A stretch of 64,000 nucleotides of DNA from sequence record PZ445526.1. One strand, written 5' to 3'. Origin of the DNA: a phage. Position numbers and translations under genes: made by a program. The notes under the pieces are model-generated. The model saw only the letters and a list, made by a program, of their open reading frames with translations, made no database searches and was not told the origin of the DNA. This document shows, one piece after another, positions 6,898 to 58,049 of the stretch (its first letter is position 1; each line of letters starts with the position of its first letter).

Positions 6898-7455
6898 TTA
6901 AATGGAAAGATACCATCCGTTGTAGTTGCTTTTTCTTACAACTTTACGAAGGTCTTCTCTGTCACCGATGAACTTCGGAGTGTACTGGATGACACCTGGA
7001 TGAATTTCTTTAGTGTTGAATATAATTATACAGTCAGCGACTTGATGATTTAGAATGGGCCCTAGATTTATTCCAGAACCGTATGGATACTCTCCGCTGC
7101 ATCCTGTTGTTACAGAAATCCAACGTGAGTCAGTTTGGTGTGTCTTAACTTCTACACGAAGCCCGCAGTATCTTGGATGCGCCAATACATCCCATGCGTA
7201 TGTATACGGGTCATTAACATCCTCTTGGCCTTTATTGACATATCCGCTTAGCCAATCTGCTACAAAAAATTCTGCGTACACAGCGATACGACATCTTTCG
7301 ATAACTTCTGCCTTATCCTGATTTGGGTTTTGTTTTAAAGAGTATCTTGCTGTATCAGCAATTTTGACCTTCATTTCACTAGTCAAGTCACTGTTCGATA
7401 GGGTAAATGTCGGAATCTGAAATAGTCTCTGTAAACCCGGATTCGTTTTCTGCAT
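6898..7455 (-). CDS. denB: endonuclease IV DenB
   Basis: 185 aa, matches remembered T4 DenB length and position between ndd region and rIIB; SD AAGGAAAG. Confidence 0.75.
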   Translation of the reverse strand: MQKTNPGLQRLFQIPTFTLSNSDLTSEMKVKIADTARYSLKQNPNQDKAEVIERCRIAVYAEFFVADWLSGYVNKGQEDVNDPYTYAWDVLAHPRYCGLRVEVKTHQTDSRWISVTTGCSGEYPYGSGINLGPILNHQVADCIIIFNTKEIHPGVIQYTPKFIGDREDLRKVVRKSNYNGWYLSI

Positions 7456-7510
7456 TTAGACTTTCCTTTATGTCGGAATCACTGATATTCATATAATAAA
7501 TCATAATTTC

Positions 7511-7537
7511 TCTTAAAACAAAAGGGCCGAAGCCCTT
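7511..7537 (-). terminator. UUCG hairpin, terminator-like
   Basis: AAGGGC-UUCG-GCCCUU then UUGUUUUAAGA. Confidence 0.5.
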
Positions 7538-7539
7538 AT

Positions 7540-7734
7540 TTATTTGAATTGTGCAATTCTTTTCTCTAGACATTCAGCATAAGATTTCATTGAGATGAAC
7601 TGTGAAAGCAGCAGTTCTTGCTCAACTGCACTAACCGTTAGAAACTTTGTGCTTTCTAAAAATTTGCTCAGTGCATTAATTTTGAGCATTAATTGATCGT
7701 ATTCTTCTTTTACTCGTGCTTGATAACCTAACAT
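7540..7734 (-). CDS. hypothetical protein (64 aa)
   Basis: ORF track, ATG with SD AAGGAAAA; bracketed by two UUCG hairpins. Confidence 0.5.
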   Translation of the reverse strand: MLGYQARVKEEYDQLMLKINALSKFLESTKFLTVSAVEQELLLSQFISMKSYAECLEKRIAQFK

Positions 7735-7748
7735 AATTTTCCTTAGTT

Positions 7749-7764
7749 AAGGGCCGAAGCCCTT
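7749..7764 (-). other. UUCG hairpin overlapping the rIIB stop codon
   Basis: AAGGGC-UUCG-GCCCUU; no U-tract. Confidence 0.4.
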
Positions 7765-8701
7765 ATTTAAATTGTTCAGTAACGTCTTCAACTACTTCGT
7801 ATTGGCAGGTACGCATTTTAGCATCGTTGTAATCAATCGGAATTGATACTACATCACGCGGATGTACTTTAACTTTTACAACTCGGCTAGTTGAACTGCC
7901 AAAGTGACGAATATAAGATTTAGAACACACATGTAGACCACGAGAACAAGTTTGTGTATCATCGTCATTCACACGAGTACGCGGCATTTTAACTACTTTA
8001 CCAGGACTGTTATCAAAGGTATTTGAGTGACAGTCAAAGTAATTACTACGAACTACTTTCCAAGCATAGAAGTAACCATCTTCTGTAATTTCAATATCGT
8101 TTGCTACCAAGAAATCAAAAAGTCGAGATACCGCTTTCTGGCTTGGGTTTTCCAGCAGATTTTCCAAGAACGGAAAATAAAATTCAAAGTTTTCGCCTTT
8201 TTCCATCGAATCAAGAATACGATCAACCAAACCAGACCGCAATTCAATATTTTGATAGAATAAGCTTCCACCTTCAATTCGAACATCGCCGGAAATATAT
8301 TTTTCAACAGCGCGACGAACATTAATTTTTTGTGCCGCTTCTTCTAACTTATCTGCTACGAGCAGATTAAGAATTTCCTGGAAGTTTGAATGAGTATTAG
8401 GAGTTGCGTTATAAGTTACACCGTCAACAGTAATTGAAATGAATTTTTTAGAAGCATTCCAAATAATATCAGATTTAGCAGCTGGAGCAATAACTGCATC
8501 GCTATTAACTTTAACTGTAATATCACCGCTAATAGTAACTGTAGAGCGTTCTGCTTCTTCAGCATTTTTCAAAACACGACGGATTGTGTCAACCGATACA
8601 CCTTGCCAATCAGCCAATTCCTGCTGAGTGTAATTACCACTTGAATACAGTTTAACAATTTCAGCTTGTTCGTTTTTGGTCAGGCATTTAATATTGTACA
8701 T
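7763..8701 (-). CDS. rIIB: rIIB protein
   Basis: 312 aa, immediately downstream of rIIA; size and synteny match T4 rIIB. Confidence 0.9.
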   Translation of the reverse strand: MYNIKCLTKNEQAEIVKLYSSGNYTQQELADWQGVSVDTIRRVLKNAEEAERSTVTISGDITVKVNSDAVIAPAAKSDIIWNASKKFISITVDGVTYNATPNTHSNFQEILNLLVADKLEEAAQKINVRRAVEKYISGDVRIEGGSLFYQNIELRSGLVDRILDSMEKGENFEFYFPFLENLLENPSQKAVSRLFDFLVANDIEITEDGYFYAWKVVRSNYFDCHSNTFDNSPGKVVKMPRTRVNDDDTQTCSRGLHVCSKSYIRHFGSSTSRVVKVKVHPRDVVSIPIDYNDAKMRTCQYEVVEDVTEQFK

Positions 8702-52549: not shown

Positions 52550-52792
52550 TTATTCCTTAATTCCTAGTACTTGTTTAAAAGTCTCGTCGTAATCAAGACT
52601 TTGGCCCGTTTGTTCTTTATGTTTGTATATAATATCACTTACTTCTGATAGCATATTTTTATATGAACGAGTTAAAGCAGATTTAAGCACGCTGTATCTA
52701 TCAGGAAATTTACCATGTTCATTATAATAAGCTATTGCTAATTCACGGACTGCCTTTTCAGCAGTCTCCATATATTCTTTACGCTTGGTCAT
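52550..52792 (-). CDS. hypothetical protein (80 aa)
   Basis: Track ORF trimmed to internal ATG; upstream part overlaps neighbouring ORF in another frame. Confidence 0.4.
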
Positions 52793-53093
52793 TTTCTTCT
52801 CGGTCAAATCGGTGTTTACAATGGCGACATTTATAACGAAGATTATTAGTCTGCCAATGGACCAATTGCACCTGTTCAGTTCCACATTCAGGGCAATTAG
52901 GAACGTTTTTAGAAGCCCTTTCGCGACGTTCAACCATGACCATTACAGAATCCCAATTAATAGGGCTGCTATAATCATCACAACCGTGAATCTTTCCACG
53001 CATTTCCAGATCGTCTTCTTCACCAGCCATAATAATTTTAATTAGACTAGAATTACTTGAAGCTGCAATGTCTTCTAATAGACGCTTTTTCAT
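52779..53093 (-). CDS. hypothetical zinc-ribbon protein (104 aa)
   Basis: CPECG ... CRHCKHRF cysteine pairs. Confidence 0.5.
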
Positions 53094-54016
53094 TTCAATA
53101 CCTCAATAGCATTACGTAAACCATTTGCTTTTGCATTAAGAGCTTTTAACAATTTGGTGTGTTCTGCAATTTGGGCTTCAACTTCAATCAAACGAGCATT
53201 GAGATATTCGCGTTCTTCTTTCATAGTATCATTCCCATGATTGGATTTTGGTGTAGGTTTAAATTCACTAGGGTCCTTTAATTTAATAACAAATTTAGTT
53301 TCAAACAGTGAAAGACCATAATTCGTATTATCATCAAAGGATTTGACTACATCCATATCAGATAATAACACGCGTAAATTATAAGCCAAAGAACTAATAG
53401 TTTCATTGTGTTTATTAGCTTCGCGTGGTTTCATATACGGAAGATTTTTATATATCTCGTGCGGAGCACAAATGATAATTGACAATTCAAATTGCCCATT
53501 CTGGGACGATGGAGTGAATTTAGCCGTAACCCAGTCTTTTACATTCACATTAATAGTACGGTTATCACCATGACAAAACAGTCTACGAGAATGCTTAAAA
53601 AGCATATTCACGTTATTATTGAATTCGTGTGAAAATTCACTAGCAAATTTTTCTTTACTATCTTTAGAAAACCATTCTTCTAAATAAGTTCTTTTCACGT
53701 CGTTAATAATATTAAATGTAACAACACTAGCATTTGATACATTAGTCTCAATGTAGCTTGGATACATAAATTTTTTAACATTATTAACAGCTATCACAGA
53801 AGATAGTAATCGGGAACGTTTGAACCACTCGAGCAAAGAACCAAGAGAATGTGAATACGCATTTTGTGTATCTTTACAAATATGGTTTTCCCATCCAATA
53901 TAGTCTAAAAAATCACGAAGAATATTATTGATTACTGCTCTGTGTCCTATCTGATAATTACGATGTTTAGTAATAAGACTGTCAAAATAATCAATATAAT
54001 GTTTACGAGTTTTCAT
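53090..54016 (-). CDS. coiled-coil family protein A (308 aa)
   Basis: ORF track; N-terminal motifs shared with 54071..55072; C-terminal predicted coiled coil. Confidence 0.6.
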   Translation of the reverse strand: MKTRKHYIDYFDSLITKHRNYQIGHRAVINNILRDFLDYIGWENHICKDTQNAYSHSLGSLLEWFKRSRLLSSVIAVNNVKKFMYPSYIETNVSNASVVTFNIINDVKRTYLEEWFSKDSKEKFASEFSHEFNNNVNMLFKHSRRLFCHGDNRTINVNVKDWVTAKFTPSSQNGQFELSIIICAPHEIYKNLPYMKPREANKHNETISSLAYNLRVLLSDMDVVKSFDDNTNYGLSLFETKFVIKLKDPSEFKPTPKSNHGNDTMKEEREYLNARLIEVEAQIAEHTKLLKALNAKANGLRNAIEVLK

Positions 54017-54070
54017 GTTCTTCTCACTTGGTTAATGATTTATACTCCGAGCCATCCTTGGCTTTAAATT

Positions 54071-55072
54071 TTACTTAATTAACTGTAAAGCTTGTTCCAG
54101 ACGATCAAGACGATTAACAGATTCTTCCCAAATCCTTTTAGCCTGCTCATATTCTTTCTGCGCTTTATTAGAAATTTCTAGAACTTCTTTATAAGCTTTT
54201 TCTAATGCAATAACTTCTGGACGAATTTCTATCGGTTCAGGTGAATCATCAAGACATTCCATTAGTTCCTCAAGGGTAGTTTCTTCTTTAGGAGTATTCA
54301 CAATTTCATCACATTTTTGTTGGTAAATTTCTTTATCAGTAGGTGAGTACGCGCACTTTACTTCACGAAGACTAATTACAATTTTATATCCTTCCCAACC
54401 GCATATATTCTTAAAAGGATAAGTATGAATATTTTCTACTGTTTCCATACAAAGTAATGCGGTCTCTAATTGACGAGTTATAGTGCTAGCAATTGAGAAA
54501 AATTTATTAATATTCTTTTGGTTAGTTTCTGGTGTAAAAAATCCATAATTCACAAAAATAGATACTTTATTTTTATCAAGTTCATATTCTTTTATGATAA
54601 TCATATCAGAAGCCAAAGGATGAATTTGACGATAATCGCCATAACATAATTTAGAAGCTGATTTTAGAATCTGTCCTTTGAAAAGTCTGAAATTACTAAT
54701 CCAACGACGAGTAAAAATATTCTCAGGGTCTTCTTTATTATTAAGATGATAAGAATTAACATCACCGAACCAATTATATCCTACTACATCTTTGGTTCGT
54801 TTAATTTCTTTCCCAAAATTACCAAGAATATCCCGATTAACCAAATATGAAAGAAGACGAGACTCTTTAAAGGTTTTCTTGATAACATCTTTATCTACAC
54901 GGCTAGAAATTTTACGAATTTCATGAATAAATTTAGTAGAAGAAACAATACTTGCATCAACACTATTGAGCCATTGATTGATAATAGAAAGAACGCTATT
55001 TTGGCCAAACATCGGTATAGCTTTATCATCAATAACGCTATTGAATGATTTGATATATTCGTTACGAGTCAT
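54071..55072 (-). CDS. coiled-coil family protein B (333 aa)
   Basis: Track ORF trimmed to ATG with SD GAGGAG (upstream part is promoter DNA); paralog of protein A; C-terminal coiled coil. Confidence 0.6.
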   Translation of the reverse strand: MTRNEYIKSFNSVIDDKAIPMFGQNSVLSIINQWLNSVDASIVSSTKFIHEIRKISSRVDKDVIKKTFKESRLLSYLVNRDILGNFGKEIKRTKDVVGYNWFGDVNSYHLNNKEDPENIFTRRWISNFRLFKGQILKSASKLCYGDYRQIHPLASDMIIIKEYELDKNKVSIFVNYGFFTPETNQKNINKFFSIASTITRQLETALLCMETVENIHTYPFKNICGWEGYKIVISLREVKCAYSPTDKEIYQQKCDEIVNTPKEETTLEELMECLDDSPEPIEIRPEVIALEKAYKEVLEISNKAQKEYEQAKRIWEESVNRLDRLEQALQLIK

Positions 55073-55100
55073 ATTAATCTCCTCAGTAGAAAGTAAGAAC

Positions 55101-55130
55101 ATTATACCACATCCTTGTGGCAAAGTAAAC
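55101..55130 (-). promoter_or_regulatory. early promoter cassette
   Basis: GTTTAC-N18-TATAAT, TGG-extended; near-identical to 11130-11159. Confidence 0.6.
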
Positions 55131-56158
55131 TAGTTCAGTGCATTTAGTGCATTGTTCAGTTTAGAACGTTGCTTTGTCAGATTTTGAACCCTTGACTGAG
55201 CTTGTTTTAACACCTTTTCAGCTTCTAACACTTCATTAGTTGCTTTAACGAGTTCAGCATCTACTGCTTTAAGAGACTTCTCAATCGCATCTGCATGCCA
55301 TTTTTCAACAGGTTTAAGACTCGGATTTTCAATAGGAAGAAAATTCACTTTATTGAATTTCCATGCATCCTTATTACCTGAACTATACATCCAAAATTTA
55401 GGATCGTTTGATAAGTAATTGGATAAATTTAAATTTAAGTTATCTTGTACTTCTTGCTTTTTCTCTTGTGTAACTTCGTCCTTTCTCAAAAAATCATATT
55501 TAAATGAAACAATCATATCAAGTTCATATGATGTTGTATCTAACTTAAATCGTTCAAAACGAGGTAAAATCTTAGATTGAACAGCAGCAACAACATCCAT
55601 ATACTTAAATGCTTCTGTCAACTGTGATTTAAGGCATTCACAAATTGAAAGAGAATTTTTTGTATTAGGTTTAAAGCTAATTCGTGCAGTTCTATTATTT
55701 TCTTTTAACGGTCTTACTTCCATCTGAAGAGTATAACCATCAAATTTCAGGTTCTTTAAGTTAATATCAGAACCTTTTAATCGACTTGCTGTGGACAAAA
55801 TTTGCTTTAATTGTTTACGGAATAGAGCAATAAATCTCCATTCAAGACGATAATGATTTGGATTAAAAAATCCTGTTGATAAATCGACCTTACTTTGACC
55901 AACGCCTTGAACAAATAGAGGATTTTTATAATCAATAGTTTTACAGAAATCGGTGAGCTGTTCACGAGCAGTCATTTGCGTAATATACCCTGCTTTACTA
56001 AAATTACGCACCCATTCACTGCTATTCGTATACTTAAAGTGATGAATAACACGATTAACTTTATCAGGGTCTAAATTATTTTCACACAAAAATGTCATAA
56101 CATCACGAGTATAGCTGGCATTACGAACCATATCTTCAATTTGAGAACGAGTTTTCAT
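55130..56158 (-). CDS. coiled-coil family protein C (342 aa)
   Basis: ORF track; N-terminus MKTR... like protein A; C-terminal coiled coil. Confidence 0.6.
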   Translation of the reverse strand: MKTRSQIEDMVRNASYTRDVMTFLCENNLDPDKVNRVIHHFKYTNSSEWVRNFSKAGYITQMTAREQLTDFCKTIDYKNPLFVQGVGQSKVDLSTGFFNPNHYRLEWRFIALFRKQLKQILSTASRLKGSDINLKNLKFDGYTLQMEVRPLKENNRTARISFKPNTKNSLSICECLKSQLTEAFKYMDVVAAVQSKILPRFERFKLDTTSYELDMIVSFKYDFLRKDEVTQEKKQEVQDNLNLNLSNYLSNDPKFWMYSSGNKDAWKFNKVNFLPIENPSLKPVEKWHADAIEKSLKAVDAELVKATNEVLEAEKVLKQAQSRVQNLTKQRSKLNNALNALN

Positions 56159-56166
56159 GGTGTTCC

Positions 56167-57072
56167 TTAAGATTTAAGTAAATCAACAATTTTAATTAAT
56201 TTTTCACGTTCAGATTTAGCTTTACTACTCAATCCGGATAGTCTAAAGATTTCATCGTCATATTGTTGAATAGAAATATTCAGCTCTTCAATTTGCTTAT
56301 TAAAATAATCAATTTGTTCAGAATGTTTTTCGTTACTACGAACTGGTACATGGTTTGTAGGCAATTTAGTTAAACTGGATTCATCCGGGCGATAAATTAA
56401 AATACAACTTGAACCAATCGGACATTTAGCACCAGACACATATTCTAATGTTCCAGCTTCTTTTAAAATTTCAAAAGCTAAACAGAGATGATGACCCATA
56501 TTGGCATAATCTGTAGAGTGAGCTCTGACGTAATAATCATCTCCACGAGTGCTAAATTTAAAGCATTTAAGGTCTTCTGTATTATTAGTTTTAAAAATCA
56601 TTTGTTTATCTAGACCTTTAGCCAATCGAGCGCCTAATGCTAATAATCGTCGTTGATTTTCCCACAAATCCGCAATCATTTGATCGAATGATAATTTCGG
56701 CATTAGTCGGCCATAAAGGTCATATCCTTTATTATAATTGCGAAGGATTTCACTCGCATTAATGCGAGACAACGCTCCAATTTTATTAAGGGCTTTCATG
56801 ATGCGATTAGATAAACTCATTCCAGACCCGTTTGTTCGCTGTAAATGTTTTTCTAATCCAAATCCAATATCAACTTTAAATTTATCTAAAATTTTGGCAT
56901 GAACGTCTCTGTCAATAACATTCAAATCCAAAGTTGGGTTAAATCTATGAAAAAATTTATCTGGCTCTCCACGACGAAATACAGTCCATTCATTCATCAT
57001 TTTTTTATTAACTAAAGATTTAATTACTGCATTGACATTATTAATTACTACTGACATATTTTCCTCACTCAA
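56167..57072 (-). CDS. coiled-coil family protein D (301 aa)
   Basis: ORF track; similar length and C-terminal coiled coil. Confidence 0.55.
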   Translation of the reverse strand: MSEENMSVVINNVNAVIKSLVNKKMMNEWTVFRRGEPDKFFHRFNPTLDLNVIDRDVHAKILDKFKVDIGFGLEKHLQRTNGSGMSLSNRIMKALNKIGALSRINASEILRNYNKGYDLYGRLMPKLSFDQMIADLWENQRRLLALGARLAKGLDKQMIFKTNNTEDLKCFKFSTRGDDYYVRAHSTDYANMGHHLCLAFEILKEAGTLEYVSGAKCPIGSSCILIYRPDESSLTKLPTNHVPVRSNEKHSEQIDYFNKQIEELNISIQQYDDEIFRLSGLSSKAKSEREKLIKIVDLLKS

Positions 57073-57495: not shown

Positions 57496-57525
57496 ATTAT
57501 ACCATCCTTGGTATAAAGCGGTTAT
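57496..57525 (-). promoter_or_regulatory. candidate middle-type promoter
   Basis: TGG-extended TATAAT with CGCTTTA box 12 nt upstream. Confidence 0.35.
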
Positions 57526-58049
57526 GCGAGTACCGTCTTTAACCGTTCTTCAAACTTCCGAAGAGTATTTTGGCGTTCAGCTCTTTGCTTTTTGTAAGTT
57601 TCAATACGCTCTGAAATGAGAGTGTATCGTTCATTTACTGATTCTTTCATAAAATCAGGAATTTCACGAGAAGCTTTAATCTCGTCAAATTTATCAATAA
57701 CAGCTTGCTCTTCAGCAATTAAGTTATCATACATCAAAATATCTTTCTTGATGAACTCAATATCTTCTTGAGTTACGCGAGATAATTTAGATGCTTTATC
57801 CTTTTTGTACTGTTCGTTAGTATCACGAGACCAGTGTAATGTACGATTTTTATTCGTATTCTTGTAAATTTCTACAATACCAATCTCATCAATAATAACG
57901 ATCCAATTCCAACGGGATTTGTAAATTTGTCCTCCGTCAACCGTGATTTCACCTCCGATTGAGATGTCATTAAAGAACTTGCTTTGTGCTTCAGATTTAA
58001 ATTTACCATCATTGTAGTTTACCAAGTTGAAAATATCTTTAGCATTCAT
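57522..58049 (-). CDS. hypothetical protein (175 aa)
   Basis: Track ORF trimmed to ATG after leader SD GGAGGA; early promoter 58078-58107. Confidence 0.55.
   Translation of the reverse strand: MNAKDIFNLVNYNDGKFKSEAQSKFFNDISIGGEITVDGGQIYKSRWNWIVIIDEIGIVEIYKNTNKNRTLHWSRDTNEQYKKDKASKLSRVTQEDIEFIKKDILMYDNLIAEEQAVIDKFDEIKASREIPDFMKESVNERYTLISERIETYKKQRAERQNTLRKFEERLKTVLA

Follow-up and report, generated by a model that had tools for sequence, protein, structure and literature searches.

The nrdC.3 to nrdC.6 block

A stretch of 64,000 nucleotides of phage DNA (sequence record PZ445526.1), referred to here as the window, carries four tandem genes between positions 53090 and 57072. A reading made from the letters alone (the sequence-only reading) had described them as a four-fold tandem family of proteins that end in a coiled coil, and the present analysis follows it up. 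What are these genes? The DNA of the block is 95.8% identical to that of phage T4T and 97.9% identical to that of Escherichia phage BF15, and the T4T annotation under the match names nrdC.3, nrdC.4, nrdC.5 and nrdC.6, with nrdC.2 as the neighbour at one end and nrdC.7 and nrdC.8 at the other. By this match the block is the Tequatrovirus gene set nrdC.3-nrdC.6, that is, a set of known and named T4 genes (Table 1). Proteins A, B, C and D of the sequence-only reading are NrdC.3, NrdC.4, NrdC.5 and NrdC.6, respectively.

The four open reading frames (308, 333, 342 and 296 aa) stand as first described, with two corrections. First, they lie on the minus strand. Second, the upstream boundary of nrdC.6 had been set at 57072, and this TTG codon is 15 nt too far upstream. 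The start of nrdC.6 is most likely the ATG at 57057, as annotated in T4T; we prefer it to the TTG because a GAGGAAA ribosome-binding site precedes it.

Table 1. Genes and features of the nrdC.3-nrdC.6 block and its surroundings, in positions of the window.
Feature	Position	Strand	Basis or remark
nrdC.3 (protein A, 308 aa)	53090..54016	minus	open reading frame; 90.9% identical to T4T NrdC.3
nrdC.3 hypervariable central cassette (aa 75-265, α/β domain)	53222..53794	minus	allele comparison, DNA identity, tblastn
NrdC.3 C-terminal predicted coiled-coil segment (aa 264-308)	53093..53227	minus	heptad score 9.75
nrdC.4 (protein B, 333 aa)	54071..55072	minus	open reading frame; 98.8% identical to T4T NrdC.4
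NrdC.4 C-terminal long predicted helix (aa 285-333)	54074..54220	minus	AlphaFold2, single helix 285-332
Promoter-like sequence ahead of nrdC.4	55101..55129	minus	GTTTACT, 17 nt, TATAAT, upstream TG; consensus match only
nrdC.5 (protein C, 342 aa)	55130..56158	minus	97.9% identical to T4T NrdC.5 over 340 residues
NrdC.5 C-terminal predicted coiled-coil segment (aa 286-342)	55133..55303	minus	heptad score 10.8
nrdC.6 (protein D, 296 aa)	56167..57057	minus	95.9% identical to T4T NrdC.6
NrdC.6 C-terminal predicted helices (aa 243-296, break at SGLSS)	56170..56331	minus	heptad score 10.1
nrdC.8 (175 aa)	57522..58049	minus	two genes upstream of the block; heptad-rich C-terminal helix

Relationship and domain plan of the four proteins

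Are the four proteins related? Pairwise BLASTP among them found no match apart from a weak one between NrdC.3 and NrdC.4 (E 0.003, 23% identity over 173 aa), Pfam and PHROGs keep three separate families, and coiled coils align spuriously, all of which speak for four unrelated proteins whose C-terminal coiled coils arose by convergence or chance. We consider such unrelatedness very improbable, since the links found by profile, by structure and through a bridging sequence fall outside the coiled coil, helices and strands follow one another in a common order, and the lists of Foldseek matches overlap.

The closest pair is that of NrdC.3 and NrdC.4. Both match PHROG 1435 over the whole profile (E 3.6e-101 and 6.6e-169, respectively), homologs of NrdC.4 carry a precomputed Pfam assignment to PF26897, and profile-profile alignment with hhalign joins the two with 97.6% probability (E 3e-12, 230 columns). 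At the level of profiles, nrdC.3 and nrdC.4 are clear paralogs, as the sequence-only reading had claimed. NrdC.5 in turn matches Pfam DUF7235 (PF23882) with 417.7 bits against a cut-off of 30, residues 1-342 covering positions 1-307 of the 307 in the profile, and PHROG 2351 at E 8.7e-169. For its comparison with the joint profile of NrdC.3 and NrdC.4 (A/B), the profiles were enriched with orthologs from 14 fetched loci and with database matches. The local alignment (E 4.7e-5) pairs A/B residues 67-222 with NrdC.5 residues 52-200, outside the coiled coil, and the global alignment reaches E 2.1e-6 over 279 columns. The score of 42.6 compares with 14.4 +/- 2.3 (maximum 20.3) for 40 column-shuffled NrdC.5 alignments; z against shuffled columns is 11.6-12.5, and the reversed alignment scored 15.0. 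Because the observed score lies far above the shuffled and reversed controls, we take the homology of NrdC.5 to NrdC.3 and NrdC.4 as established by profile comparison.

The connection of NrdC.6 to the other three is of a different kind. NrdC.6 matches the whole profile of PHROG 2257 (E 1.2e-149), with homologs precomputed as Pfam PF26899, and hhalign, comparing it directly with A/B, reaches no significance (E 0.035, z 2.6). In their AlphaFold2 models, however, NrdC.4 and NrdC.6 have helices and strands in the same order. N-terminal helices come first, then a long and a short helix, a pair of strands, another long helix, a second pair of strands and, past a low-confidence linker, a terminal helix. 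In the NrdC.4 model three further strands separate the N-terminal helices from the long helix that follows, a place where that of NrdC.6 has isolated bridge residues only. The non-significant A/B-NrdC.6 alignment pairs exactly the elements that are equivalent in the two models, for example the motifs FKESRLLSYLVN with GALSRINASEIL, GYNWFGD with GYDLYGR, and LKSASKLCYGD with LALGARLAKGLD. Similarly, Foldseek searches of BFVD returned seven full-length matches common to both models, each of them uncharacterised and 300-370 aa long, from Enterobacter phage IME523, Pectobacterium phage PM2, Acinetobacter phage Acj9, Erwinia phage Cronus, Yersinia phage fHe-Yen9-01, Klebsiella phage Mineola and Serratia phage PS2; the IME523 and PM2 matches lie near 1e-7 with both models and the other five between E 6e-7 and 7e-3. 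Finally, PM2_092 acts as an apparent bridging sequence between the NrdC.4, NrdC.5 and NrdC.6 families: it matches PHROG 26858 at 9e-15, PHROG 2257 of the NrdC.6 family at 3e-4 (central domain) and PHROG 2351 of the NrdC.5 family at 6e-4, and NrdC.4 matches PHROG 26858 at 7e-4 over 260 residues.

Because these profile, predicted-structure, motif and PM2_092 links combine, NrdC.3 to NrdC.6 very likely form a single superfamily. The grouping of the four proposed from the sequence is borne out by profile alignment for A with B (E 3e-12) and for A/B with C (E 2.1e-6); D joins less firmly, through predicted structure and the PM2_092 bridge. The M(K)TR N-terminus first noted in A, B and C is indeed present, and it recurs in distant orthologs.

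The predicted structures point to a common plan, with a helical domain at the N-terminus, an α/β domain of about 150 residues in the centre, and a flexible linker that leads into a C-terminal coiled coil of 45-55 residues. In the NrdC.4 model (predicted local distance difference test score, pLDDT, 82) the helical N-domain spans 3-84 and the α/β domain 88-235, residues 236-284 form a linker modelled with low confidence, and 285-332 are a helix; the NrdC.6 model has a pLDDT of 77. In the family and its architecture, taken together, we place high confidence. When A, C and the A/B and D profiles were searched by sequence against the PDB, no match fell below E 0.3 and no related solved structure was found.

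Pfam and NCBIfam searches assigned none of the four to an enzymatic family, their other matches being sub-threshold ones to coiled-coil families, and the early observation that no enzymatic motif is visible agrees with this absence of a catalytic family. In GenBank phage records, nrdC.3 to nrdC.8 are widely tagged 'thioredoxin', and a 2026 paper places nrdC.8 among 'nucleotide reductases' (PMC13275509). Neither label finds support in the sequences by Pfam or NCBIfam, and the 'thioredoxin' label of NrdC.3-NrdC.8 is a misannotation, apparently carried over from the names 'nrdC.x'.

We analyzed the C-terminal regions with an ad hoc heptad-periodicity score in 28-residue windows, each protein being compared with 300 shuffles of itself. 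NrdC.3 scores 9.75 at residues 278-305, against a shuffle maximum averaging 7.2 +/- 0.7; the 10.8 of NrdC.5 is the top score of the window, and NrdC.6 reaches its 10.1 at residues 243-276. In each of these three proteins 0 of 300 shuffles attain the observed score, and in each the periodicity lies in a long, proline-free helix. The C-terminal segment of NrdC.5 also gives weak, sub-threshold matches to coiled-coil families in Pfam and NCBIfam, and AlphaFold2 places the C-terminal helices of NrdC.6 at 243-272 and 278-295. The statement that all four proteins end in a heptad-rich coiled coil therefore holds by score, and with it the coiled-coil propensity, for A, C and D; for B the score gives no support, and what stands is one uninterrupted 48-residue helix in the AlphaFold2 model (residues 285-332).

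The C-terminal heptad scores were also ranked among 73 non-overlapping open reading frames of the window. NrdC.3, NrdC.4, NrdC.5, NrdC.6 and NrdC.8 all fall within the top eight, a clustering whose chance by hypergeometric counting is 6e-5 for the four proteins NrdC.3-NrdC.6 and 4e-6 for five including NrdC.8. The extreme C-termini of all four follow a common pattern, roughly [KR]-L-x-x-A-[LI]-x-x-L-K, that recurs in orthologs and in distant relatives; because coiled coils align easily, we do not count it as evidence of homology.

Copy number, the nrdC.3 cassette and neighbouring genes

Members of the superfamily turned up only in T4-like phages (Straboviridae), in every case shortly downstream of nrdC. 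Everything that word-indexed searches returned came from T4-like enterobacterial phages or from sequencing contigs of such phages. When the A/B profile was run exhaustively with HMMER against 1.84 billion representative proteins, nine matched, each either of the A/B type or a fragment, and the C and D families were not reached.

At the syntenic locus the gene order is conserved and the copy number runs from 1 to 4. Tequatrovirus loci have four copies (nrdC.3, nrdC.4, nrdC.5 and nrdC.6); other T4-like coliphage loci (L008-L016) have three, namely one A/B-type gene with nrdC.5 and nrdC.6 and without nrdC.3; in Acinetobacter phage Acj61 there are two, in tandem a short way past nrdC; and Pectobacterium phage PM2 has one, directly after its nrdC.2 homolog. 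The two Acj61 proteins (Acj61p120 and Acj61p121) are linked to the family by Foldseek and genome position only, hhalign against the family profiles being not significant. On this distribution nrdC.3 is a Tequatrovirus-specific duplicate of the nrdC.4 lineage.

Single members are also lost or altered in individual phages. Natural loss of nrdC.4 has taken three routes: in Tequatrovirus PD112 (locus L019) the gene is cleanly missing; in locus L007 it is split into open reading frames of 193 and 158 aa (6971-8003); and P0119 is a 299-aa fusion in which the mid-portion of NrdC.5 runs, across a short VN match, into the C-terminal half of an NrdC.3 allele. P0119, being part NrdC.5 and part NrdC.3, was considered as evidence of homology and rejected, its deletion joint lying at that short match. 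A different rearrangement is seen in P0121 of Shigella phage Sf25 (BFVD A0A2K9VMF6), a 378-aa NrdC.6 variant with an internal tandem duplication of about 82 residues, from IRAHSTDY to FNKQIEEL, that takes in the latter half of the α/β domain and the beginning of the C-terminal helix. At the Acj61 locus (L017, 11228-13937), in a genome with just two members of the family, adjacent genes are annotated as nicotinate phosphoribosyltransferase and phosphoribosyl pyrophosphate (PRPP) synthetase, a pair that looks like a phage module for salvage or reconstitution of nicotinamide adenine dinucleotide (NAD+).

Within nrdC.3, variation is concentrated in a central cassette (Table 1). Over the first ~70 and the last ~45 residues two alleles agree at 95-100%, and between these ends they are 32-57% identical. 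When the central 191 residues of NrdC.3 were used in tblastn, 140 phage records matched at 80% identity or more and 512 at less than 60%, with almost nothing between; among the low-identity records listed, clusters lie near 49-51% and 43-46%. At the DNA level, identity of the window's nrdC.3 to loci L006 and L007 is 48-77% between 53905 and 53192 and then returns to 99-100%. The window shares an identical central cassette (53192-53905) with locus L004, while in the coiled-coil segment (53102-53191) its identity to L004 is ~80% and L006 and L007 are the loci that match it exactly. Because the cassette matches L004 and the coiled-coil segment matches L006 and L007, the nrdC.3 of the window is, to judge from these alignments, a recombinant in which the two modules have reassorted independently. 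The diversifying duplication suspected from the sequence is thus upheld by a copy number of 1 to 4 across T4-like phages (1 in PM2, 2 in Acj61, 3 in L008-L016, 4 in Tequatrovirus) and by the alleles of the nrdC.3 central cassette.

The C-terminal helix, by comparison, is the best-conserved region of each family, or nearly so. Between genera its identity is 56% in NrdC.4 (37-52% elsewhere), 34% in NrdC.5 (14-27% elsewhere) and 65% in NrdC.6 (22-34% elsewhere, with the exception of a central helix motif at 69%), and the sequence DDEIF in the C-terminal region of NrdC.6 is invariant across genera.

The surroundings of the block add several features. The promoter-like sequence ahead of nrdC.4 (Table 1) is followed by a GAGGAG ribosome-binding site upstream of the gene, and its GTTTACT-17 nt-TATAAT arrangement resembles that of a T4 early promoter. 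The 54-nt spacer between nrdC.4 and nrdC.3 holds a short GC-rich hairpin at 54047-54064 (AGCCAAGGATGGCT, coding strand). The transcribed strand shows no T-run behind the hairpin, which may serve in RNA processing or stability and not as a terminator. Downstream, nrdC.2 (52779-53093, minus strand) encodes a 104-aa protein with two CxxC pairs (CPEC...CRHC) that look like a zinc ribbon. The stop and start of nrdC.3 and nrdC.2 overlap by 4 nt (53090-53093), which suggests that the two genes are translationally coupled. Upstream, nrdC.8 has a heptad score of 9.6, the third-best C-terminal score among the 73 open reading frames, is conserved in all coliphage loci examined, and possibly has its own promoter-like site at 58106-58078. 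It was tried as a fifth member of the family and rejected, hhalign finding no link to A, B, C or D.

A proposed role against host immunity

What do these proteins do? The one member with a published phenotype is NrdC.5. Srikant, Guegler and Laub (eLife 2022; PMC9391042) described an evolved T4 clone with genomic deletions that had lost plating on ECOR17. The clone plated again once dsr1 was disrupted in ECOR17, and on MG1655 with dsr1 plating was regained when T4 nrdC.5, in the authors' terms an early gene, was supplied on a plasmid. Dsr1 has a SIR2 domain and is believed to act by depleting NAD+ (PMC9391042), and its sensor domain is reported to recognise phage major capsid proteins (PMC13581612). 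With 97.9% identity and the same gene order, locus and neighbours, the NrdC.5 of the window is by sequence the ortholog of this anti-Dsr1 factor, and NrdC.3, NrdC.4 and NrdC.6 are its paralogs; the study itself gave neither a mechanism nor the paralog relationship. Reports on nearby genes of T-even phages describe nrdC.1 as an inhibitor of Septu and gp49.2 as one of OLD. These are small proteins with no detected relationship to NrdC.3-NrdC.6, and they are encoded in the same genomic stretch. Because nrdC.5 (Dsr1), nrdC.1 (Septu) and 49.2 (OLD) lie together, the stretch from 49.1 to nrdC.x behaves as a counter-defence island. The literature held nothing on nrdC.3, nrdC.4 or nrdC.6 beyond passing mentions, and searches for a treatment of nrdC.3-nrdC.6 as one family, or for papers on their Pfam accessions, found none.

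All four genes are dispensable. The HIDEN-SEQ supplement lists them as non-essential in T4 (bioRxiv 10.1101/2025.11.20.689424), with transposon insertions tolerated at 91 of 94 sites in nrdC.3, 97 of 101 in nrdC.4, 82 of 82 in nrdC.5 and 79 of 82 in nrdC.6. We conclude that the genes are dispensable because of these tolerated insertions together with the natural deletions, a frameshift and a fusion.

We propose that NrdC.3-NrdC.6 are early, dispensable, fast-evolving paralogs that neutralise host immunity proteins as non-catalytic binders, a reading we favour with some reserve. In this proposal, the NrdC proteins would bind host anti-phage immunity proteins stoichiometrically and without catalysis soon after infection. 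The conserved C-terminal coiled coil would oligomerise the protein or touch a conserved partner, and the fast-diverging central domain would decide which host protein is bound; we assign specificity to the central domain because of its divergence and its exchange as a cassette. The range of targets would grow by tandem duplication and by the swapping of cassettes. NrdC.5 cancels Dsr1 protection, most likely by direct binding of Dsr1, and NrdC.3, NrdC.4 and NrdC.6 would target other host systems.

The model for direct binding is DSAD1 of phage SPbeta, which is reported (PMC10973363, PMC11087589, PMC11263360) to suppress the NADase activity of DSR2. The likeness is that of a non-enzymatic phage protein disabling a SIR2-domain defence protein that depletes NAD+. 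The difference lies in the target, in that DSR2 is reported in the same sources to sense the tail tube protein, whereas Dsr1, the target of NrdC.5, senses the major capsid protein.

Several points weigh against this proposal. The functional data concern NrdC.5 and are a phenotype, not binding (PMC9391042); the coiled-coil state and the partner of the NrdC proteins are deduced; NrdC.4 has no significant heptad score against its 300 shuffles; the nrdC.6 link leans on predicted structures and marginal sequence statistics (E 0.035, z 2.6); and one host comparison in the HIDEN-SEQ supplement shows no significant difference for any of the four genes (bioRxiv 10.1101/2025.11.20.689424). The anti-defence role that the sequence-only reading had suggested for the whole block is carried for NrdC.5 by the literature (PMC9391042), next to the neighbours nrdC.1 and 49.2. 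For NrdC.3, NrdC.4 and NrdC.6, which we infer to be candidate anti-immunity factors, it is an extrapolation, and we judge the chances that all four proteins act against host defence to be about even.

The four could also be one family in which only NrdC.5 acts in counter-defence and the others have different roles in host takeover, such as the modulation of host proteins, or are themselves the trigger that some defence systems detect. That no phenotype is recorded for nrdC.3, nrdC.4 or nrdC.6 fits this view, as do the frequent functional differences between paralogs at 15-25% identity and the existence of Tequatrovirus without nrdC.4. We nevertheless think it unlikely, if a serious contender, in that the four share their architecture and their locus with a proven anti-defence gene, in a stretch with at least three counter-defence genes, and the hypervariability of the nrdC.3 cassette is typical of arms-race genes.

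The conserved ends of the proteins raise a further possibility, namely a single hetero-oligomeric machine, held together by the similar C-terminal helices of the paralogs, in place of independent inhibitors. The genes are adjacent and probably co-expressed, the [KR]-L-x-x-A-[LI]-x-x-L-K pattern is common to their ends, and the C-terminal helices are among their best-conserved parts. Set against this, plasmid-borne nrdC.5 alone rescued the deletion phage (PMC9391042), and copy numbers from 1 to 4, together with natural phages that lack single members, disfavour an obligate complex; such a machine seems to us improbable.

The predicted central domain of the nrdC proteins may resemble tail terminators and completion proteins (lambda gpU, 3fz2; T5 p142, 8bcp; gene transfer agent (GTA), 6tba; SPP1 gp17-like), with an identity of 4-12% and Z below 8. 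Might they then be virion or assembly proteins related to tail terminators? This we regard as scarcely credible. In comparison to tail terminators, the nrdC proteins carry two additions, a helical domain at the N-terminus and a coiled coil. A gpU-like protein is the product of an essential late tail-module gene; nrdC.3-nrdC.6 are non-essential, lie among early genes and have an early-promoter-like sequence. The likeness has a second possible meaning, in which a tail-terminator fold was recruited from a structural module, fused to a coiled-coil handle and turned into an early decoy, and this we think rather improbable. In the detailed form of that idea, to which we give just as little weight, the decoy would occupy or jam bacterial sensors of conserved virion-protein folds (such as Dsr1 and the Avs type), each paralog or cassette being tuned to a different sensor.

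Some of this was already known, namely the gene names and the published anti-defence phenotype of one gene, nrdC.5. What appears to be new is the recognition of one family with one domain plan for the four proteins and their same-locus relatives in distant Straboviridae, as well as the nrdC.3 cassette polymorphism and the possible likeness of the central domain to tail terminators. The analysis also corrects the widespread 'thioredoxin' misannotation of the nrdC.x genes. T4 is the reference phage, yet its nrdC-mobD stretch is mostly unexplained. Because NrdC.3, NrdC.4 and NrdC.6 are paralogs adjoining the proven anti-Dsr1 factor NrdC.5, which also has same-locus relatives in distant T4-like phages, they are nominated as candidate inhibitors of other defence systems. 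The domain plan, with its variable centre and conserved coiled coil, points to the parts worth mutating or swapping, and the natural alleles of the nrdC.3 cassette allow direct comparison. We propose that the block may serve as a small-scale example of a counter-defence repertoire widened by tandem duplication and recombination.

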